A stretch of DNA of 64,000 bases from Amoebophrya sp. A120 (Eukaryota; Protista; Dinoflagellata), in contig CAJINV010000001.1 in NCBI GenBank assembly GCA_905178155.1, positions 13,363,713 to 13,427,712 on the forward strand, read 5' to 3'. Numbering within the stretch: position 1 is the first letter of the stretch; each line of letters opens with the position of its first letter. The translations under genes were made by a program, and so were the position numbers. Of the stretch, positions 14,070-64,000 are shown one piece after another. The notes beneath the pieces are model-generated. The model had not been told where the DNA came from. It was given only the letters and a program-made list of their open reading frames with translations, and made no database searches.

Positions 14070-16685
14070 TTATGGTTTTGGCTTTTTTGGGGGCCTTTGG
14101 AGTATCGTCTCGTCAACCTTCTTCACACTGCGTTCGGCGTCTCTTTTGAAAACAAAGACATCCTCTCCTATGCACGGTCCTGAGCCAGCTTGGTTTGAGA
14201 TACACTCCGCAGTCCGTCGGTCGCGCGTGTCTTCGAGCGCGGCGCGCAGGACAGGAATCGCGCCGATGCGTCCTTCCCGAACGGCAAAAAACCGCGCGAA
14301 ACGAAACATTCCGGAAATAGCGGCGGAGAACATACCGAAGATTCTACCCGACATCAGATACCCTGCAGCTTCTGCGAGCGCCGCACGCGTGAAGCTGGTG
14401 ACGCCTTGCTGTTGACTGTCATCGAGACCGCCGCCCTCCGCTACGAAATGGAGAAGCGCTCCAATCTCTCCGTATCCTGGTTTCACAGCGACCTGCTGCC
14501 AAAAAGTAGCCTGCAAAAAATCCCAGGCGGGAATGCCCAAAGGCTTCCCGTCCGACAGGCTGCACACCGCCCTGGGCTGCATTTCCTGTTTCCTTGTTAT
14601 CGTCCCGTTTTTCGCGGTCGTTTCGGTCGTCACCCGCAGAGCGGGGCTGACGAAGCCCGGACCGGAGCTGAGTTCCATCCAAACGGACCGCCGGTAGTCC
14701 CAGCTCTGAAAGAGCTCGTCCAGAATGTAGCAGGTGTCCAGTGCGTGATCCGGGACGATCTGGTAGCGCCCATTTTTCCCCGTCTGCCCGGCGTTGTACT
14801 CTTTCTTCTCGAAGAGCATGTAGCCGAACCAGGAGTGGAACAGCTGCTCCAGATCGACGTCCGTCGGCCCCCGCGAGACTTTTCGGCCAGGCTCCCCCAG
14901 TAACGGACACACTTGTGCCGCGTGCGAAGTGACCACAACAGTGTGGAGTTTCGCATTGTGGTTTTTCTCAATGTACCGCTGCAGGTACCGCTCCGCACCG
15001 TAGGTCCTCTGGAAGGTTTCGCCAGGGTTACGGAAAAAGGATGTGGAGGAATCTTCGTGGCGTGGGCCCAGCGGGTAATTTTGGAACACCGCGGTCTTGA
15101 TCAGAATGTCCACACGGAAATCGTCCATGCTTTTCACCACGTCGCTAATCTGAAGATTTTTACTTTGGCTTCGATTTTTCTCAACGGGCTATGAAAACCG
15201 GTCACCAGGATCAGTTGTACTGCTACAAAGACAATGAATGAAATGAATTCATTAGCTTTAAACGAGGTAGCTCGGAGCATCAGGTTTTCTGCTACTAAGC
15301 ATGTACTCGCTGGTAATCTTCCTCTGCTCCAAAATCGTAGATAAAGCACTTCAGGCGTGTGAAATCGGGGCGAAGAATTGTGTGGATAATGGAGTCACAC
15401 GCCGTCATCGAAGGCACGCCAAGGTAGAGCATTTTTGCACGCCCCCACTCAGATAACCATTTGGCCGTGTGGTAGCCCACACCGTGCGTTGCGTCAGTGA
15501 CCAAGATATTGCGGCCCTGTAGTTGTTCGATAAATTCTTCTCGAACGATCATGCCGATTCTAAAAATCTTCTTGACATTTTCTGATTTGACAGAGAGGGA
15601 TTCCATAGTGTAACGAAAAACAACATACAACAGTACAACTTACGCCGAATTTCTGGTGCGTTTCATCGTAGGTTTCCAGAAACGCTTCTTCCAACGGCCT
15701 GTCCAGCACGGTTTGGGCAGCAAAGGTGAGCGCGATGGGTACCACTACAGCCGTCCAGTAGAGGAATCCTATGACGAACGAGCCCCGACACGCGATGTTT
15801 TTGACCGTCAGCTTTTTCTCATTGGGCACGAGGTCCTGTGGCCGCAAAAGCAACGCCTTCACGTTGTGCGTTTTGGACATGTAAATTTCCGCTTCGAGTT
15901 CGCCCTTCCACCAACAATAGCTGGAGTAGTAATTCCACATGAAGGACACAACCACGACCGCGACGATAACACCGAGAGTACCCTGTGCCGTTTTGTCGAC
16001 CGCCAGCGCATCGTCCGGGCGACCAACTTGCACGTCCCGATTCCCGAAGTAGTGCTGGACAATGGCCACGTAGTAGTCAGGTCCGCGGAGAAACACAAAA
16101 TACCCGACGGAGGCGAACAGCAACGCGAGGTGCCGGGAGAGCCAAATCAGGTCGAAAAAGCACCGGAAATGACCGTCGCCAACGAGCACGAGGAAAAACG
16201 TGAAAAACAGCGTGAACAGGAAGCCAAGCATGAAATCGCCGAACCCCTACCAAATGCAAAAATGTCTGGGTCTGGAAAAATTCACGTTTGTCATGCTTGT
16301 CTGGCGTGACTCTTAAATCTGTCATGCACGTTCCCAAGAGCTCCGTTTTTCTGTGATGCAGAGGCACAGTTTGTCATGCAGAATAGGCAACACCTAGGAG
16401 CTCAGAAACTTGTCGTGCTGAGCCAGCATTCGTAGCCTCATCATGAGACGCTACCCAGCATCACAAGTTTCCAGACCCAGACATTTTTACTTTTGATAAC
16501 CCCACACGCCAGACGAAATCCGGAGTAGCGTCCAGGACTGCCGCCGCCGCCGGCTGCCTTTTCGCCTGCGCAAGTAGGGAGTCCACCTGCTCTGGTAACG
16601 CGGAGAGCCGCTCGAGCAGCTGCTCCGACAAACCATTCAGGCTCAGCATCGGCGGCGCGCTGTTGGAACCGGTATCCAGTCCCAT
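14070..16685 (-). CDS. Multi-TM protein fused to a short-chain dehydrogenase-like Rossmann domain; interrupted by introner 16248-16498
   Basis: The first exon (MGLDTG...DFVWRVG) joins ORF 15560-16231 (several hydrophobic helices) after removal of the element. It is followed by ILVTDATHGVGYHTAKWL (TGxxxGxG-like) and VDILIKTA via a GT-AG intron into ORF 14070-15140. Confidence 0.65.
16248..16498. mobile_element. MITE-like introner element, copy 1 (251 bp, 31-bp TIR, 5-bp TSD ACCCC)
   Basis: Left TIR taccaaatgcaaaaatgtctgggtctggaaa versus right tttccagacccagacatttttacttttgata (28/31 complementary). ACCCC occurs at 16243-16247 and 16499-16503. A near-identical second copy lies at 33785-34036. 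Confidence 0.92.
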
Positions 16686-33220: not shown

Positions 33221-35897
33221 TCACCTCAAAATGCACGGGGGAATGCGCGGCGCAGGTCGCTGCTTTCGTACCGTAGTGCCAAACGTCGTTCTGCCGTGGA
33301 ATTCCTTGCACCCCGTCCCTGGCAACAACTGCTGCAGCTGCTTCGCCCTGCTCTGCGCCTTCCAGAAGAGTCCGACGTTCGACATCGCGCTCTCGTGACT
33401 TTCCCGCACGACACTTGGTACACTTCTAACCTCGTCCGCAAAGGGAACCCCGTGCTCTTCGCGCTCATCCAACAGTAATGCCGGTCTCGCTGTCGAGGGG
33501 GCGGTGGTAGAGGTGTAGGGCGAGGAGGTGCGCCCAGGGAAGGGTGAGGCCGTTGTACGGTCGAAGCTGCGCTCGGAATGGTCTGTCGGTCTTTTACCCT
33601 TGTTTTCTTGTTCAACAATCGCCGCAGCTGATGCTGTTGCAGCTGCGGTCGATGGCAATAGTTCCACTCTTTGCTGGCCTGGCTGCACCGTCGCCTCAAG
33701 ACGTCGACCGTTCGCTGCCGACTCTGTTACTGTTTCGGCGGTTAAAAGGGTCTCATTGGCGCCATTATGTTCGACGCAATTGGATATCAAATGTAAAAAT
33801 GTCTGGCTCTGGAAGAATTCATGTTTGTCATGCTTGTCTGGCATGACTCTTAAATCTGTCACGCACGCTACCCAAGAGCTCCGCTTTTCTGTGATGCAGA
33901 AGCGCAGTTTGTCATGCAGAATAGGCAACACCTAGGAGCTCAGACACTTGTCATGCTGAGCCAGCATCTGTAGCCTCATCATGAGACGCCACCCAGCATC
34001 ACAAGTTTCCAGACCCAGACATTTTTACATTTGGTATTGGACGAGTTCTTACTATGTGCTACTTCCGGTAGTTCCTTTTCGGGCGTGGATACTGCACCAA
34101 TGAGCAAGGAACCGTCAAAGCCACCTGCCGGACTGACGACCAAAGAGGACTCGTCGACCTGCATTTGCACGTCGCCTTGCGGCTCTTGCATGTAGTCGTA
34201 TGCAGGTCCTCCTCCTGGATTTCCGCCTTCTTGCGACGGGAGATGGGCAGCTCCCAGATTTCGATGCCCCTGAGCTTGTGCGGCGTAAGAGAGGCATTCG
34301 AAAAGCTGCGACATTGGTGATGACGACACCGACTGCGTCGTAGCGACTGCGTGCATTGCAGGAAAGCGCATCTGATCGTCAGGAAAGGACTGAAGGGCGT
34401 CGTGTTGGTGGTCACCTTGCGCCGCCGCTTCCGCGGAGAACAAGTTCCGCCCCTTCATCTCTGTGTGCAGAAACTCACTCGTTTCGCGTGCAGGAGGTGC
34501 CTGTATTTCAACGCCCGTCGGCATATTGCTTACAGAACCCATTCCTCCTCCGTATTTCTGCGCTATGAGCTCCAGAGAAAGCGTCGAACGCGTTTTCTTC
34601 CACGCGGAAAAACAGCGGTGCAGCAGCTTGAGGCTCTCCCAGGCCCGCTCTTTTGCAGCAGCGGCCCGTGCTAACATGTCCTCGCGCTCCCTCGTCAAAA
34701 TCAGTCGCGCAGCACCACGACGAAGGGAGTCTTGGTGCTGCCTGTAAGCGTCCCTTTGGCGCGCTTTTTTGCTGACGCGGTTTACTGCCCAGGACCTGTA
34801 TTATTCCACAAAAAAGCGATCGCGCTGAAATCAATTGCTCAGCCTGTCAAGAGACGGATTTCAACGTTGTTCCATATCACGCATAGTTAACTGCAGTACT
34901 ACGGAACCAATATATTCATCCACCATTACCTCCAATTCGTGAGGAGTGGCGGAACGACCTTGCCAAGTCTGAATTCTTTCGCCACGATTCCTGCACACGT
35001 CAAGGTTTTCCGCTCGCTCGCACGCTCTAGCCACCGTCGGAGCTTGAAGCGCAGCCGGCATTGAAGGACGTGCTGGGATAAATCAGTTCGTTTGGAAGTG
35101 CGAAAAGAACTTGCTGATTCTATTGCTAATCTGATACATAGTGACTTGCAGAATTCAGTCGAAAGAATGAAAAGTTTGAATTTCAAATTCACCACGAGAA
35201 CTCTCGTGAAAAAATCAAATCCTTCTACCTGCCGTGCAAGATCCCCCATCAACCTCTTACGCTTGCCGGCAATCGCGAGCTCGATCCAGGCTCGGATGCA
35301 GGTCTTTTCGATTCTGCATTTCGCAAACAGATTCGCCCTGCCGCGAAGGCGGCGCTCCTCCTGGTTCCGTAGTGCGTGACGCCGTAAGCTTCCGCAGGCA
35401 TTCTTCATGCGTCGCGTCTGGATGACGCTGGTTGCTCCATACTGTCGCTGCCGGAGGGCGTGTAGACAGTGAAAAGCGCGCCATCCCTGTCGCAGTATCT
35501 TTCTCCGCTCGGCAAGCTCGTGCCACCTGAGTATCGATAGCGCAATAAGTAATGAGGAAGATCAACATGTGAGCACAATGCAGCCTTCGACATAATATTT
35601 CCTCGCAAGTGCGAGCACTTTTTCTCATCACATGCGCGTCAGTGTAGCAGGAGCAGCTTACCGCCTCCACAAGCCAGCCTTCTGTAGCGCTTGGACCTTC
35701 GTAGCTTTTTGCGCGTAGCCTTCTTTCTGGTGGCTGCAAAAGTCCTTCCAATGCGCAAAAAAACGGCCTGCGACTTCCTGCTCAAGGTTCGCGCGCAAGG
35801 ATCGAATTACCCTACACGCAATCCGCTTCACCCAAAATCGCAACGCACGCACGTTGAGCTCATCCATGTTCGTTCGGTCTTTATCTGGCAAGAACCG
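33221..35897 (-). CDS. Multi-exon protein with Sfi1-like Trp-terminated repeats; interrupted by introner 33785-34036
   Basis: GT-AG-joined exons give recurrent units ending in F/LxxW (AGRFFAHWK, GLWRRWHE, TCIRAWIE, FKLRRWLE, LLTNWRSW, LLHRCFSAWKK). The frame continues across the element (KNSSN|CVEHNGANE). Confidence 0.6.
33785..34036. mobile_element. MITE-like introner element, copy 2 (252 bp, 31-bp TIR, 5-bp TSD TTGGA)
   Basis: Left tatcaaatgtaaaaatgtctggctctggaag versus right tttccagacccagacatttttacatttggta (28/31). TTGGA occurs at 33780-33784 and 34037-34041. Colinear with copy 1. Confidence 0.92.
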
Positions 35898-56200: not shown

Positions 56201-57007
56201 CAGCATCGCGGGGCGTATCGCGGGCGGCGGGCGTGAATCAGAAGGTCACGCGCGCGCCAAGTGCGAACCCCGCCGCCCCTTCTGCCAGTTCAGTATCTTA
56301 CAGCGGGTGCGTGACAGTGGCCGCCATGGCTCGACAGGGTTCGCCTTCTCCGATCTCTCTAGCGCCGCGTCTTCGTAGCCTACAGGGTCGGGGCCTGAAC
56401 GGCCGACGTTTCGCGATTTTTCTACTCCCCATAACATGCACATTCCTGCATCTCTTTTTTCGAGGTCCTGTGGCGACACCAGATGCCTACCTGTATATCC
56501 AGCTGGGGCACTTGTGGTCATCGGGGCGGCAATCGGCGTCCCGACCATCATTTTATTTGAACACGCCAAAGCAAGCGGTCCCAACTCACATGTCCCAGGC
56601 ATAGTTGTTCCCGCAGGCTACCTAGCTACCCCGGGTGACCTACCACATAAATCAGTAGCAACACAACTCTTCACGAACTTCTTCGCATGTTCGAACAGAC
56701 GTTCAATAGCACCTACATCTACGCAATGAATTGGTCCTGCCCGTACATCATAGCGCTAGCGGTGGAGTTCTTTCATTTACGCGCGAGCGCTAGCGGTAGA
56801 GTCCGTATTTTCGTGCTTTCCCGCACTGCCGAAAGACGGGGGCACTCATTACATTTCAGAAGATCCTGTTTCTAGATTGCAGGATGTTTTCAGCTTGACA
56901 CAAATTTCGAATATCGTGCTGCCCATGGACGTTGGGCTTGTGTCGGCTTTAATTTCGATCGCCAGTATCGAATTGAGAACGATGGCGCACATGTCACACG
57001 CCACAGG

Positions 57008-57655
57008 TCAATCGCAAGCATCTGTGCCAACAAAAGATGTGTCATGCCTGGCCCCTAATGTGTGCCGCGTGACACCTGCACCACCAGCCCCACGCGTATC
57101 TCCTGCCGGCGAAGACGACGGCTCTGCTTCCGCAGATACTGGTCTAGAGATAGATAGAAGAGATTCATCATCTTCGTCTTTCTTCGGCGATACTCCGGCT
57201 CTTCCCCTGCCACCGGACTGCCTCCTTGGTTTGGCGACACTACGCGCGGGCGCGGATGCAGACTGCTGAGATGAAGAACGCGCCCGTCTTCCAGCATGGG
57301 AATCTTGATCTTCCGTTTGCGACACAGGAGGACGGCTAGCCGCAACTACCGGATCAGTTGCAGATACTGGTGCGGGCTTTGCACGCTTTTCTTCGTACCT
57401 ATCGGATTCATCCGAGGTATCCGGCAGTGCGAGAGCAGCCTCATGAAGTTCGTCCTGTTTTGCAGCCTCGAATGAAAGAAAAGCTTCATCGTCCGCAATC
57501 TGTGCCGCGCGGCTTCTTGCCGCGACTCCTCCTGAGCCGGCGTGATTTGCTTGATCATTATTACCCTCTGCAACCCCACTGATGTCACCGGCAGCACTGG
57601 AGAGCAACTCAACATCCTTTTGTGGCACAGAACCACCACTGGTCTGATCCATCAC
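57008..57655 (-). CDS. Hypothetical low-complexity ORF downstream of the KDZ element gene
   Basis: 215-aa acidic/Ser-rich ORF preceded by an acceptor-like TACTAAACAG; no motif. Confidence 0.35.
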   Translation of the reverse strand: MMDQTSGGSVPQKDVELLSSAAGDISGVAEGNNDQANHAGSGGVAARSRAAQIADDEAFLSFEAAKQDELHEAALALPDTSDESDRYEEKRAKPAPVSATDPVVAASRPPVSQTEDQDSHAGRRARSSSQQSASAPARSVAKPRRQSGGRGRAGVSPKKDEDDESLLSISRPVSAEAEPSSSPAGDTRGAGGAGVTRHTLGARHDTSFVGTDACD

Positions 57656-57902
57656 GCCCTGTTTAGTAATATTTCTAGAGAGTGACCCGGCCGGTGGGGT
57701 TGGTCATAGCATGCGGGAAAAAGTGAAAATTTGCGACTTTTGTTCTAAGACGACCTGACTCAACTTGAAAAGTTGACTTTTTTTTTGAAAAGCAAAAGAG
57801 CAGAAAAAAAAGAAACAGCCCGAGAAAATCGCTGGAAGTTGTGCAGGACCTACCGCGCGCGCGCGCGCGTTTTACCGGATTCGGCTTGGCTTTTTTTGCA
57901 AG

Positions 57903-58145
57903 TTTTCCCGGATTTGCCAAATTCATCAGCTTCACCAGCTTCGCCAACTTTCTCGGATTTGCGAAATTTGGCAAATTCATCAGCTTCACCAGCTTCACCA
58001 GCTTCGCCAGCTTCGTCAACTTTCTCGGATTTGCGAAATTTGGCAAATTCATCAGCTTCACCAGCTTCGCCAGTTTTCTCGGATTTCCGAAATTTAGCAA
58101 ATTCATCAGCTTCACCAGCTTCACCAGCTTCGCCGACTTCGGAAA
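57903..58145. repeat. Minisatellite of 27 phased 9-mers in higher-order units of 45/72/54/72 bp, flanked by (CG)7-8TTTTAC(C/A)GGATTC direct repeats
   Basis: 9-mers such as attcatcag, cttcaccag, cttcgccag, ctttctcgg and atttgcgaa are in perfect register. Flanking repeats at 57854-57882 and 58173-58199. Confidence 0.9.
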
Positions 58146-58874
58146 TGACCGGGGCCCGTGTGTTTTGTTTGACGCGCGCGCGCGCGTTTTACAGGATTCT
58201 ACCTCTGCCGCCTGTAGGTGGCATGTTTCTGCTTCGTGTTGTGTCTGCTAGACAAGAAACACAAGACGCGAACGAAGAAACAGCGGGCAAGGAAACAGCG
58301 GGCAAGCAGACAGGGCCGAGACAAACCAACGACAGACCGAGGGCGATCCTACCTCTGGAGCGAACGGCAGACCGAGGCTGGTCAGTCTTCTGTAGCGAGC
58401 GGCAGACCGAGGCGGACCCTCTGAAGCGAGCGACAGACTGTGACGGGTTCCATGTATGCTTATATGTATGCTGGTCAGGCAAGGGGGCGCCACCGGCCGA
58501 CCCAGCGACTTGGTACAGAACACAAAACAAAAAGCGAAGGCGCTGAGGCAGTCGGGCCCGCGTCCCACGCGCTTGGGGGCGCCGGTGCGCAACGAGGCGC
58601 CCCAGCCTCTTACTCTTGCGCGTGCTCTACAAAGGGTCTACCTGCTTAGCGCGAGTCGCTCATCGCCGCGGGAGTCAGGTCTCATTATCCTCGGTTGCCA
58701 AAGTTCGGAGGCCTTCAGGCATAGCACACAGGACCACCTGCATGGCGTAGATACGTCCACGCCACAAGTGTCCACCTGTGTAAGTATTCAGAAAAGAAGC
58801 GCAGGCGCGGAAGCAGGAGAGCCCGCTTGCCACTGTTGCACATAGCTCACTCACAGGCCTGCATAGCAGAGAGC

Positions 58875-61800
58875 TCATTTCTTCCCAACCGGGCGGAAAA
58901 GCCCCTGGCGGTCCTTCGTTTTGAGCCCGTTGAACCTCCGCACCAGGGACCGCAGCACGAAGTTGAAACTCTTCCCCTTCATGTTCGTCAGGGATTTGCG
59001 GTAGCCGCTTAGCCAGCTGTTCGTCTGCTCCGCCACTGACGTGTTGCGGATGCCCTTCTCCGTACACCACCGCTTGTTCACCCCCTTGATTTTGTACTTG
59101 TCGCCGCACTTGTGGTTTCGGGCGTGCCATTTGTCGATCAGGAATTTGACGGAGGGGACTTTCCCGGGGTGGTGTTTCTCGATGAACGGCGCCAGATGGC
59201 AGGCGTCGTCATGGAGCACGGTCCTCAGCTGCGCGCCATGCTTTCCCACATGGGAAACCACCCAGGCTGCCTTCTGCTGTGTCGTTTCGGCTGCCAGTAG
59301 CTCCTCCACGGCGACAATGGCGCCCGTCTTTTCGTTCGATACCACGAGGAGCCCGCCCGTCCGGTTCTTGAACGTCTTGGGCTTGGTCTTGTCTTTTTTG
59401 GCGCACGTGTGCGGAACGGCTGCCGGTTTTGCTGCCGGCTTTTTGTTTGGCGAGCCTGTGTGGTCAGTCAGTGTGGTGCTAGGTTTCAATAAAACGGAAC
59501 ACACAAAACCCAAAGAAATTAAACTTGCGCGGCCAAACAGCTAAAATAAAAAGCGCAAGGCTCTGCAAACCTTTCGGGCGCCCGCGCGGGCGCGCGGCCG
59601 CGGAATACGGGCAGGCTTCCCCGGCTTCCTTGACGCGGTTCACTTTTTGATTGCCATCGATGGCAGCCGTTTCCATCTGCGCCAGCTCGTCCTCCGCACC
59701 GATGGGGGTGGTCTTGATGTCATTGAGGGCGAAGGCGTTCAGCATGACAGGCATCGGCGCCACGACGAAGCCCGTCCAGCGCAGCGCGAGAAGCTCGTAG
59801 GCGCAATAGGCTGTCCAGAGGTACTCCGTGACGCGGTTGGTGGCAAGCTTGGTGCGGAGACCTGCGCACCAGGCTTCTGCCATTCCCGTAGTCCGGGACC
59901 GGAACACGCGGTCCCGAAAAAGTTCGACCTGGTCGACGGCAATCCCCAGGGTCGTCGTCAGGAAGAAGACCCCGCGCGCCTTCAGCTCGTCCACCGTTTT
60001 CCAGGTGTTCTCATGTTTCCCGTTGTTTACAACGTAGCCGCAGCGGTGCCATGCGCCGCACAACTTAGAGCAGCAGCGCTTCCCGACGTGGATGGCGTCG
60101 CACGTCGTCAGATTGGACTGGAGAACTTGCGCGGTGGTTCGGGCAGTGGCGCCGGTAAGTGCGCAGCCGCACTTAATGCAAACGGTGGCGAGGGGCCCAT
60201 ACTCCTGTGGGGGGGCGCCGCCATGCAGAAAGTTGATGAGTTCCTCGTCTTTCTGGCGCTGCGCTGCTGCCGCCGCATCCTCCGCACCGGGGGACATGCT
60301 TATGTCCTCCGCCTCGTCTGCGTTGGGGCCCTGCTCGTCCCGGGAACGAAGGCGGCCGGGAAGAGTGTAAGCACGGCCCGGAACGGCTGCGCCCCTCTTT
60401 TGTGTCTTTTTTCCGAATTCCTGCTCACAAGCCTCGCGGAAGAGGTTCGGGTTGGCCTCGAATGGCTTCAGGTCATACGCCACAAACCGATAGCGGTCGG
60501 AAGTGGCGACGAACTCTGCGAGCTTCGCGTACAAATCGGCCGGGCCGATTCGCGTGGCTTCGCCGAGTTTCACAGGGGCGCCAAACATCTCGACGGTGAC
60601 CGGGCTAACCCACTCCGCGGCCCAGTCCCCCACGATGTTCGGGAAGAATTCCGGGTGCCAACGTTGGCCGGCCTCCTTCGCGCCCTTCGCGTTCTCGGCT
60701 ACGTCCCGCGTGGCGTGGCGGTGCAGGAGGAAGAGCATAAACGAAGGCGCCAAGCGCTCGACCTCCTCGTCGATCGCTTGACTTGCCGGCCGGCTTCTTG
60801 GGGAGGTCTGCCGCTCTCCGGCCTGGAGGAACCGGATCGGGAAGTAGAACGTCTGGAAGCGAGTCTTGTCGGGCTGGGTGACTGGTTTCAAGAATCGCGG
60901 GGCAACGTTCCCAGTCCCAAACCATTGCCAGGTCGGATCGATTTCGCGCATTGCCGCGGACTTGATCTGCCGCGCTGGCAATGTGTCCGCGGACACATAA
61001 TTGCAGAAGCGAGTAATGTCCCAACACTGCGTATCCGAGACCTCATCCATCCACATGAGCCGCGCCCCGAGCGATGCGTAAAAGAATGCGCTGTGCTCAT
61101 CCACCCCGCGCTTGTCGGTGCAGAAGACTTGCGGCTTCACCTGTGTGAAATAGCGCCCGAAGGCCGCGCGCACGAGTTTCCGCAGCAAGCCCTTCCCCTG
61201 TCTTCCCCGGGGGCTGAAGAGGTAGTTGAACCGATGCAGGGGGGCTCCCGTAACTGATGCGGCAAGCGCGTCGAGGAGCAGCTCCATCGTCTCCCTGTCG
61301 GGGCCCTTGTCATAGCGGTGCGCTGCTTCTTGTTCATCTTTTTCAAAGAGGGAGGAGAAGAAGTCCTGCACGCCTTCAAAAGACGGCGCGCGCCCGGCTC
61401 TCTGCATTGCGTCCAAAGCCGTGGCCCAGTCTGGGTTGTCGATGAGCTGCTCCGGGATGTCAATCGGGGCAAAACGGCAGGCCATGTGGTCGGGCGTTAA
61501 TTTGGTGAAGACCCTGCCAGCAACATCGTAAACGCAATTGCGCAACGCAAACCACCGCGGATTCTGATCAAACCCCGCGCGAGATACGAAAGCCGCCTCG
61601 GATTTCTTCAGGAGCATCTCGACCTTGTTGCGCATAAGCTTGCCAAACTGCTTGAGGTATTGGGACTCGAGGCCTGCTACCTGCCGCACGTCCGACCACA
61701 GGCGCTGCACTAACGAGGAGGCCTCCGCCTCGCAACATTCATGCCAATGCTGCTGCCACATGTGCCACTTTTGGTCGACGAGGGTGAGACGGTGGCGGGC

Positions 61801-63045
61801 GAGCAAATACAACAGGGCGACGCTGTGGTAGGTCGAGTATTGCTCCCCGGCCTCGTTCTCTTTTTCCCGCGCGTAGGAGGCCAGGACGCGACCAAGGTAG
61901 GCCGGCTCCGTTTCGCCCACCTCCTGACGAAAGCGGCCCGCCCAATCCTCCAGCCCGCCACGAATGGAGGGGATGTTGAGTCCTTCTGGGCCGAAGTGGT
62001 GCGCCCCGGCCCGCGCTGGTGCGGGAACAATTGGGCCGGGGTTCGCAGGGGGTGGGGCGGCGACCACCTGCGCCGCGACCATCTGCTGCGGCTCCAAGTT
62101 GTCGGCCTGGTTGGGTATTGTGTTGGGCGAGTCCGGTGCATCACCGTCATCGTGGAAAAGCCGGCGGCGGCTGTTTGGGAACGGGCTGCGTTGGTTGGCC
62201 ACGCTGTGCGCCGGCGTGCGCGGTTGTGCCGCCGCTGGGGTGAGTCCCCCGAGATATTCCAGGTGGGTGCCGTCGACGTCGGTGATGGTTCCCAAGTCCA
62301 TGAGCTTCCCGAGGACCTCCTCGACCCGTTCCGCCTCATCCTGAAGGCCCTGCGCCGCCACAAAGGCATCCAGGTCCGCCCTGGAGTAGAGCTGCTCCTG
62401 GCTAGCGCTTCGGCGGAAGAACCGCCGCAGCAGTGCCCGCACCTTCTGCGCGAAGGCCTGGCCTGGAGATGCGCCGGGCCCGGTGGCACCGCCGAGCAGC
62501 GCCGCGGCCTTCCAGGCGGGAAGCCGGGCCGCCACTTTGCGCGGATCGATTACGACCGCGCCCGCTAGCCCGCCGGCGCAATCGAGCAGGGCGGTGAGGG
62601 AACGGAGCGCCTCGTAGTGTTTGTTGTGCAACAGCAGCGGCACCAGGGCCGCCGCGTTCATTCCTGGCTCCATAACGACGACGGTCGCCGCGACAGTATG
62701 GACCGCGATCGGCCTGCCGAACATCAGGGCCAGTGTGGCGACGTCCCCGACGTCACCACACTGGCCCGCGCGCTTGCCGCAGAGCCAGCGCAGCCGGCTC
62801 GGTGGCAACCCCGGGCCAAGGTCCGTCGCCTGCCGCACCGCTGTCCAGAGGCAGCTGTTTCTCCGGGCGTTGTTGGGGTGTACGAACTGGCCACAGGGCT
62901 TGGCGGCGAGCTTCGTCCAAATTCCTAGGACGTAGCCCCCGCAGAGGCAGAGCGCCTCGACAAATAGCACCGCGGGCAGGACGAACAACATCAGCAGCAA
63001 TCGCGCCGCAGTGTTTGGCGCCTCCTCCGCACGTTGGCGCGCCAT
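58875..63045 (-). CDS. Polyprotein: OTU-like protease + winged helix + D5-like SF3 helicase + CxC/KDZ DDE transposase (1351 aa, 2 exons)
   Basis: GT-AG intron 59456-59570 (branch-like CTGACTGAC) joins ORFs 59479-63045 and 58875-59513 in frame (PRGRPK|GSPNKK). OTU-like: NSCLWTAV..GDVATLALMFGRPIAVH..LLHNKHYEAL. D5: FDQNPRWFALRNCVYDV, Walker A PRGRQGKG, Walker B LMWMDE, motif C GTGN. Transposase: CxxC..CC..C..H, AAIDGNQK, HDDACH, IDKWHARNHKC, NTSVAEQTNSWL. Confidence 0.85.
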
Positions 63046-63201: not shown

Positions 63202-63484
63202 GGTTTGCGAGCACTCCGGTCGCTCTCTGTCGAATGTCTGAGCAGTGCAGCTTGATTGGCCTCTCGGTCTCTCTTGCTTTTCCGTGCTTCTACTTTGCCA
63301 GCGCAACAATGCAAGCGAACGAGCGACGAGCCTGCCCGATGCGGCTTGCGGCCAAGCTCCTGGGCATGTTGTCTCTCGCTCTGTTTCCGACGACGCAAAA
63401 CATGCGCGCCCTGACCTCTCTCGGGTTTGCGAGCACTCCAGTCGCCCTCTGTCGAATGTCTGAGCAGTGGAGCTTGATTGGCCT
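63202..63484. repeat. 61-bp direct repeat, two copies 222 bp apart
   Basis: ggtttgcgagcactcc(g/a)gtcgc(t/c)ctctgtcgaatgtctgagcagtg(c/g)agcttgattggcct at 63202-63262 and 63424-63484. Confidence 0.85.
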
Positions 63485-63490
63485 ATCGTT

Positions 63491-64000
63491 AAAAGGGAGA
63501 ATGGAGGTCACCCAGTTGCCGTCTTTTTCCAATGTTAACAGGGGGAGTGGACGTGCTCCGGCTGCCATCTTTTTCCAATGTTGAAAGGGGGAGCGGAGGC
63601 GAGCCGGCTCGCATCTTTTTCCAATGTTAGGAGGAGGAATGGAGGTGACCCGGTTGCCATCTTCTTCCTATGTTAAAAGGGGGAATGGAGGTGATCCGGA
63701 CATGGTCCACCCGCCATGTTTTTCCAATGTTAAAAGGAGGAATGGAGGCGACCGGGCTGCCATCTTCTTCCTATGCTAGAAGGGGGAATGGAGGTGATCC
63801 GGACACGGTCCGCCCGCCATCTTTTTCCTATGTTGAAAGGGGGAGCGGAGGCGAGCCGGCTCGCATCTTTTTCCAATGTTAAGAGGAGGAATGGAGGTGA
63901 CCCGGTTGCCATCTTCTTCCTATGGTAAAAGGGGGAATGGAGGTGATCCGGACATGGTCCGCCCGCCATCTTTTTCCAATGTTAAAAGGAGGAATGGAGG
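63491..64000. repeat. Satellite of 46- and 57-bp monomers with a 252-bp higher-order repeat (runs off the window)
   Basis: Monomers aaaagg(g/a)ggaatggagg...gccatctttttccaatgtt. The pattern 46+46+57+46+57 gives 252, and gagcggaggcgagccggctcgc recurs at 63591 and 63843. Confidence 0.9.

Follow-up and report, generated by a model that had tools for sequence, protein, structure and literature searches.

A single-gene KDZ-like transposon of Amoebophrya sp. A120 predicted to join an OTU-like protease, a D5-type helicase and a DDE transposase, with candidate sites for self-processing

Protease domains of the OTU or Ulp1 type occur in many DNA transposons. An OTU-like domain is predicted in an element whose gene lies on the minus strand of a 64,000-nt stretch of the Amoebophrya sp. 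A120 genome (contig CAJINV010000001.1, positions 13,363,713 to 13,427,712; the whole stretch is hereafter called the window), and the question raised by this locus is whether the domain cuts the very protein in which it lies. The predicted protein consists, in order, of a hydrophobic leader, an OTU-like domain, a winged helix, a D5-type superfamily 3 (SF3) helicase and a CxC-KDZ-like transposase. We conclude that the element is a single-gene KDZ-like DNA transposon, whose gene fuses a predicted OTU protease to a D5-type helicase and, C-terminal to these, to a DDE transposase. A preliminary description of the sequence regarded the open reading frame (ORF) as a virus-style polyprotein that releases helicase and transposase by cleavage at Gly-Gly (GG) motifs. 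This idea is partly supported, by the placement of the motifs and by a distant relative, P0093, although the OTU-like domain of the window lacks profile support. Self-processing at two sites, one after the OTU-like domain and one before the transposase, is the best reading, and we hold it with moderate confidence. The chief alternative, which we consider a serious but less probable one, is that the OTU-like domain acts only as a deubiquitinase shielding the fusion protein from ubiquitin-dependent turnover, and that the protein stays whole, with the GG motifs serving as helix caps and flexible hinges.

The five motifs that had been listed as lying at domain boundaries (LCGG, LLGG, YLGG, IRGG and LHGG) are present exactly at the coordinates given (Table 1). 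The accompanying count of seven GG dipeptides is correct for the spliced protein: the unspliced ORF contains six, including CAGG, which had not been listed, and a seventh, RTGG, is added when the predicted intron (59570-59432) is removed. Six GG are what shuffling of the ORF would yield (6.2 expected). The proposed consensus, (L/I)xGG, fits four of the six motifs (four of the seven after splicing), YLGG having Tyr at P4. Leu or Ile at P4 in four of six cases exceeds the expectation from composition (0.74; P = 0.007 by ORF shuffling and 0.008-0.015 for the spliced protein). However, Leu, Ile or Met precedes GG more often in real proteins than composition predicts, namely in 8 of 43 cases in 11 long host ORFs and in 46 of 233 cases in 92 fetched proteins. 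Because this rate is about 20%, at which simple arithmetic gives P of about 0.03 for four of seven, the P4 motif alone is weak evidence, and the same rate in unrelated proteins favours the deubiquitinase alternative.

The placement of the motifs is more informative. A hydrophobic-x-GG motif is present in all four inter-domain stretches, which exceeds chance expectation. When each stretch was shuffled with its Gly content kept, the probabilities of such a motif were 0.144, 0.215, 0.135 and 0.057 (product about 2e-4); natural Gly-rich windows of equal lengths gave 0.121, 0.167, 0.28 and 0.151 (product about 9e-4). That even Gly-matched nulls give about 1e-3 or less over the four stretches argues against the deubiquitinase alternative, as does the finding that, over as many as 100 residues ahead of the first helicase helix, eight of nine helicase homologues contain no GG (the ninth has EEGG). 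The absence of GG from the helicase itself, to which the preliminary description had drawn attention, is unremarkable (probability of zero GG, 0.12-0.15; 11 of 47 long homologue rows are likewise GG-free).

The second line of evidence comes from P0093, a protein of 1531 aa that was the only match of a transposase profile to longer proteins (7993 candidates). P0093 consists of an OTU domain, an SF3 helicase, an extra region of ~180 residues and a CxC-KDZ transposase, and thus has the same OTU-helicase-transposase order as the protein in the window. It is distant: the helicases match with a profile probability of 96.7 at 14% identity, and the transposases are 27% identical. Its OTU domain is recognizable, with PDB matches to 11nq_A, an L protein fragment that we take to be a nairovirus-type OTU (E = 0.0013), and to OTUD3 (E = 0.044), and a match to Pfam OTU (E = 0.05). 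A winged helix is not recognizable in P0093. The OTU-D5 helicase-KDZ fusion thus appears, from sequence, in two distant proteins. P0093 carries LTGG/GTGG at residues 206-215, just after the OTU domain (LTGG 22-26 residues past the OTU His), HVGGGG at 1100-1105 and AEGG at 1115-1118, both before the CxC cluster, and three further GG inside the transposase, while residues 216-1101 (886 residues) contain none (P = 0.04-0.12). Because LTGG and VGGGG of P0093 match the LLGG and LHGG joints of the window protein, GG is present in both proteins at the joints whose cutting would release helicase and transposase; this coincidence in so distant a relative is a further point against the deubiquitinase alternative. 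In the window protein, the OTU-like core ends near aa 148, so that LLGG lies ~35 residues beyond it and 8 residues before the winged helix.

The VGGGG run lies ~30 residues before the first CxC Cys in both P0093 and P0092. It is kept at all five positions in P0092 (68% identical to P0093), while the immediate flanks, as read from the alignment, keep ~4 of 24 residues. This retention shows constraint, although the constraint may be that of a turn. The N-termini of free-standing KDZ proteins lie 9-50 residues ahead of the first CxC Cys, about where a cut at LHGG would fall, and GG before the first Cys was found in none of the seven that were scored versus all three of the window protein, P0093 and P0092. 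The preliminary description had proposed that homologues should keep the GG motifs while their linkers diverge. In P0093, this holds for two of the five sites, the post-OTU and the pre-transposase site, but neither for IRGG nor for the GG before the OTU domain.

Several observations weigh against self-processing. Self-cleavage is a prediction from sequence. The four stretches and the wider P4 class were picked after the motifs had been seen, and the products given above are therefore optimistic; helix capping, moreover, raises the true null, Gly caps being common at helix ends. As the deubiquitinase alternative would have it, both IRGG and LHGG lie at helix ends: LHGG terminates a helix predicted by AlphaFold2, and IRGG, which does not lie in a variable linker, aligns without gaps to a block at the start of the helicase module (S-[LM]-T-x-x-L-D-x-F) in which none of nine homologues has GG. 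AlphaFold2 predicts aa 358-373, which contain this block, to be helical (predicted local distance difference test, pLDDT, 69 for the block). The conservation around IRGG was taken from a 10-row alignment, the 80-row alignment A7 being unreliable there. The sites of P0093 lie in Gly-rich stretches (chance of GG, 0.11-0.20 after the OTU domain and 0.07-0.24 before the transposase), and the VGGGG run may form a hairpin turn within a block that is conserved. Furthermore, the pre-transposase site of P0093 reads H/V-x-GG, not (L/I)xGG (it is IVGG in P0092), there is no GG in P0093 either before the OTU domain or between the helicase and the following region of ~180 residues, and P0093 is the single independent relative with the full architecture among the searches made. 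The comparison with free-standing KDZ proteins is a weak control, their N-termini being short and Gly-poor and two of the loci, L002 and L005, being near-copies. Finally, the Helitron-borne enzymes called VTDs are true deubiquitinases by assay; such enzymes cleave ubiquitin chains and were proposed to protect transposition proteins, and the same paper, of 2022, listed the OTU domains of transposons as still to be assayed (PMC9741609).

The identity of the OTU-like domain is a separate matter. A Cys at a helix start followed by a His on a later strand, Cys65 (RNSCLW) and His143 (LLLHNKHYE), stand in the order expected of an OTU, and would form its active site. An Atlas lead (0.84) points to an OTU-bearing cluster, and the ten best family matches concur. 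The His region aligns with that of the P0093 OTU, although the pairwise score of the two domains is not significant (P = 0.11), which also weighs against self-processing, as do the absence of any match to the domain in Pfam, PDB sequences or PHROGs and a single-sequence AlphaFold2 model that left this part unfolded (pLDDT 30-48). The OTU assignment is therefore a prediction from motif, position and the weak Atlas lead, of which position appears the strongest, P0093 having a recognizable OTU at the same place. The absence of profile matches and the unfolded model would fit an inactive or misassigned OTU, with motifs that are relics or chance, and so would the Cys box, RNSC rather than DGNC, and the shortness of the domain (78 residues from Cys to His, versus 94 in P0093). 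We consider this improbable, since Cys and His each stand in an OTU-like setting, the families found with the Atlas concur on OTU and P0093 has a canonical OTU in the same position. Cutting of the GG sites by a host protease of the USP, UCH or SENP type is more improbable still: although enzymes with Gly-Gly specificity of these types occur in all eukaryotes, they generally need a ubiquitin-like fold ahead of the GG, and for the unit that ends in YLGG the prediction is a winged helix.

Self-processing by OTU-fold proteases has precedents in RNA viruses. For turnip yellow mosaic virus (TYMV), the cuts fall at RLLGS and KLNGA and for equine arteritis virus, putatively, at RLIGG (PMC5695851); these sites resemble LLGG and LHGG in the window and LTGG in P0093. 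In tymovirus PRO and arterivirus PLP2, as far as the accessible text of these papers goes, the OTU fold serves both polyprotein processing and deubiquitination, and one site lies directly past the protease (PMC3744425, PMC5695851). TYMV PRO is moreover a compact processing OTU without the usual Asp and Trp (PMC3744425), and the window domain is likewise short and, by eye, has neither the Asp that precedes the Cys nor the middle-motif Trp. The differences are that activity has been shown for these enzymes and that they belong to RNA viruses; no sequence link between them and the window domain was found.

The preliminary description had considered such processing unusual for a DDE DNA transposon. 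It is less so than was claimed, self-processing by vOTU domains having already been hypothesized for polinton pPolBs and for Tlr1/transpoviron helicases (PMC11161782; cited in PMC12721341). In both polinton, mavirus and plasmid pPolBs and Tlr1/transpovirons, an OTU-like protease with Cys and His lies inside a multidomain protein of a DNA element and is proposed to process it (PMC11161782). The cargo in those systems is a terminal protein, pPolB or an SF1 helicase, whereas the helicase here is of the SF3/D5 type; some of those elements carry a DDE integrase as a separate gene, whereas here the transposase is part of the same chain; and the accessible text names no cleavage motif, whereas candidate sites are visible in the window protein (PMC11161782). 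Unlike polinton-type elements with vOTU, the element as seen has no polymerase or capsid gene. KDZ (Kyakuja-Dileera-Zisupton) transposons share the CxC cluster, the DDE core (by a Pfam match below its cut-off) and a large multidomain transposase, but neither a fused D5 helicase nor self-processing is described in the text available (PMC12730594, PMC12477816, PMC5751038). Helitrons and Helentrons with OTU or VTD also have a deubiquitinase-type protease fused to a helicase-containing transposon protein, but use rolling-circle HUH/SF1 machinery, with no processing described in the text available (PMC9741609, PMC6431247). Neither an OTU-D5 helicase-KDZ fusion nor a self-processed DDE transposase is described in the accessible text of the literature searched, which included PMC5751038, PMC6431247, PMC3706591, PMC12477816, PMC12062965, PMC10318531, PMC12130899 and PMC12730594; the original KDZ paper with its supplements, the Zisupton paper and Repbase lay outside that search and may list OTU or helicase partners.

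If self-processing occurs, the OTU-like domain would cut its own chain after hydrophobic-x-Gly-Gly, most likely at LLGG and LHGG, and these cuts would yield a helicase able to form rings and, separate from it, a transposase of about the size of free-standing KDZ proteins. A cut at LCGG would release the chain from the hydrophobic leader, which may act as a membrane anchor or signal. Cutting is plausible at YLGG as well, and least likely at IRGG. Deubiquitinase activity may coexist with self-cutting, as in tymovirus PRO. Because no primase partner was detected, the helicase would more likely open DNA in transposition than replicate the element alone. A broader scheme, which we regard as possible but doubtful, is that of a protist family of DDE transposons with a polyprotein (membrane leader, OTU, winged helix, D5 helicase and KDZ transposase) that cuts itself at every hydrophobic-x-GG joint, maturation and membrane release switching helicase-assisted transposition. 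If every joint is indeed cut, OTU domains of other DNA transposons would be maturases and not only deubiquitinases. Since the protein is small and its candidate sites are visible, maturation of a DDE transposase by its own protease is directly testable.

The fold of the helicase is clear. It matches Pfam D5_N (E = 1e-8) and primase-helicase families of PHROGs, and its AlphaFold2 model (80 sequences, pLDDT 80.7) matches poxvirus D5/E5 in Foldseek (E = 3e-17) as well as African swine fever virus PrimPol helicases. No AEP or PriCT domain match was found in the window protein, whereas such matches are present in the distant homologues P0027, P0030 and P0035. The closest helicase homologue, P0001 (42%), ends ~10 residues past the helicase, a point in favour of self-processing, although an intron could also account for it. 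In P0015 and P0017, related D5 helicases are fused to a long C-terminal region in which a likeness to PolA-type polymerases was seen by eye, without Pfam support; the short Cys...His motif at the end of P0017 may represent a further compact OTU. A pairing by MAFFT of IRGG with KLRGA of P0093 was rejected, since motif spacing, judged by eye, places KLRGA inside an insert of the D5_N region. For the winged helix, Atlas and Foldseek gave weak but concordant leads to the winged helices of RPA2 and MCM; when the N-terminal model, itself of low confidence, was used in fold searches, nothing matched at E 0.001.

Homology is likewise shown for the transposase part. It has phmmer matches to P0026, P0036, P0051 and P0055, the Cys pattern of the CxC zinc cluster ahead of the DDE core is invariant in all five aligned sequences, and D1130, HDD, DKWH and NTSVAE are conserved among its relatives. 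The match to Pfam KDZ (PF18758; E = 1.3e-4) concerns the exon-2 part only and lies, at 22.2 bits, below the cut-off of 26.6. A tree of 12 transposase cores neither showed nor rejected a single origin of the window protein and P0093 (p-AU 0.43); P0036 was grouped with these two solely by its 68% identity to P0093.

Other searches returned parts of the architecture. Neither the whole ORF as query nor the helicase pair, run against longer proteins only, found a match (7991 candidates in each case). Of the 83 matches in a representative search, 79 fell in the helicase and 4 in the transposase; the OTU-like domain and the winged helix had none, and no match spanned helicase and transposase. Contig scans found nothing in viral contigs, in prokaryote genomes or in metagenomes (helicase query). 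A transposase contig scan yielded eight loci from 237 pattern matches; tblastn found no match to the OTU or D5 part in the DNA covered at these loci, five of which have <2.1 kb upstream. At L004 (1010-2965), a separate P-loop ORF of 652 codons, unrelated to the D5 profile and without a clear family match, lies upstream of a free-standing KDZ gene, and at L002 (1683-2540) and L003 (11021-11761), a common ORF of no known family lies directly downstream of the KDZ gene. Residues 49-130 of P0092, a region not homologous to P0093, show a weak likeness to the Cys box of the window OTU-like domain (E = 0.003 among three sequences), which may be chance or an out-of-frame read.

The unspliced ORF (63045-59479, minus strand) has 1188 codons, and its third-position GC is mostly 0.7-0.9 throughout, leader included. 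The sequence of exon 2 is continuous with that of exon 1 in the alignment with P0092, P0055 and P0026. Two observations determined the acceptor of the predicted intron. With it, RGRPK and the following Cys are nine residues apart, the spacing found in P0092 and P0055; and the second genomic copy carries a 4-nt insertion at 59432, tolerated only by an acceptor at or after that point, which then falls in the intron. Nothing in two RNA read sets and one RNA contig set mapped to the gene, and these sets are uninformative on its expression.

Table 1. Coordinates of the element, its gene and the motifs and domains of the predicted protein in the window
Feature	Position	Strand	Details and basis
Exon 1 of the single gene	59571..63045	-	aa 1-1158 of the predicted 1343-aa protein; ORF and splice model
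Hydrophobic leader, aa 14-34, membrane-anchor- or signal-like	62944..63006	-	Kyte-Doolittle 19-residue mean 2.7, the ORF maximum
LCGG, candidate site between leader and OTU-like domain	62935..62946	-	ends the leader
Compact OTU-like cysteine protease core, aa 55-148	62602..62883	-	predicted catalytic Cys65 (62851-62853) and His143 (62617-62619); motif pattern
CAGG (aa 156-159), sixth GG	62569..62580	-	just past the OTU His strand; Cys at P4
LLGG, candidate site after OTU-like domain, one of the best-supported pair	62488..62499	-	counterpart LTGG in P0093
Predicted winged-helix domain, aa 194-264	62254..62466	-	AlphaFold2, three helices and a hairpin, pLDDT about 60
YLGG, candidate site closing the winged helix	62245..62256	-	Tyr at P4
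D5-type SF3 helicase module, aa 358-900	60346..61974	-	Walker A GRQGKG aa 614; Walker B WMDE aa 665
IRGG, weakest candidate site	61954..61965	-	first helix of the helicase module
LHGG, candidate site between helicase and transposase, one of the best-supported pair	60217..60228	-	first CxC Cys follows 12 residues later
CxC zinc cluster and N-terminal part of KDZ-like transposase	59572..60192	-	first catalytic Asp in IDGN, aa 1130; phmmer and alignment
Predicted 139-nt GT-AG intron within the transposase	59432..59570	-	homologue spacing and second-copy insertion
Exon 2, C-terminal part of KDZ-like transposase (HDDACH, DKWH, NTSVAE)	58875..59431	-	Pfam KDZ; homologue alignment
RTGG, seventh GG, within the fold of the transposase and no candidate for cleavage	59352..59363	-	only after splicing; also in P0092 and P0093
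One element end with subterminal tandem repeats	57676..58438	.	boundary near 57676 inferred
46/103-nt tandem array upstream of the gene	63482..64000	.	continues past the window edge; other element end beyond the window

Summed contig depth is 72-105 over the gene versus 44 on the flank, and 31 substitutions were found across four contigs. These values fit about two copies, depth being a poor measure of copy number. The second copy looks decayed, because codon 1012 is a stop among its variants and Walker B is altered. Of its 23 scored differences in exon 1, 17 are non-synonymous or nonsense and 6 are synonymous; none hits the GG motifs, which is uninformative at ~1% divergence. At 60492-60498, the loose ends of a DNA run (X1) in the helicase of the second copy are mutually reverse-complementary, which suggests that a small inverted-repeat element is inserted there.

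At the visible end of the element, a single-copy contig stops at 57705 and depth climbs from 44 to 134-515; no match to this end was found elsewhere within the window. The end near 57676 appears to lie inside an intron of a host gene, and the whole element appears to be contained in that intron. In this region (57100-57676), the visible end is ~17 nt before the AG acceptor of a host exon, and contig X7 extends to an upstream exon outside the window. The same contig skips 138 nt at 56962-57099, a non-canonical intron of the flanking host gene with non-GT-AG ends. Compared with PMC7789003, this intron and the inverted-repeat elements of the window point to a eukaryotic host that is probably an alveolate of dinoflagellate type, parasitic or otherwise. 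Elsewhere in the window, two copies of a 250-nt element (16248-16498 and 33785-34036) are 90-94% alike and have 31-nt terminal inverted repeats, resembling a miniature inverted-repeat transposable element or an introner.

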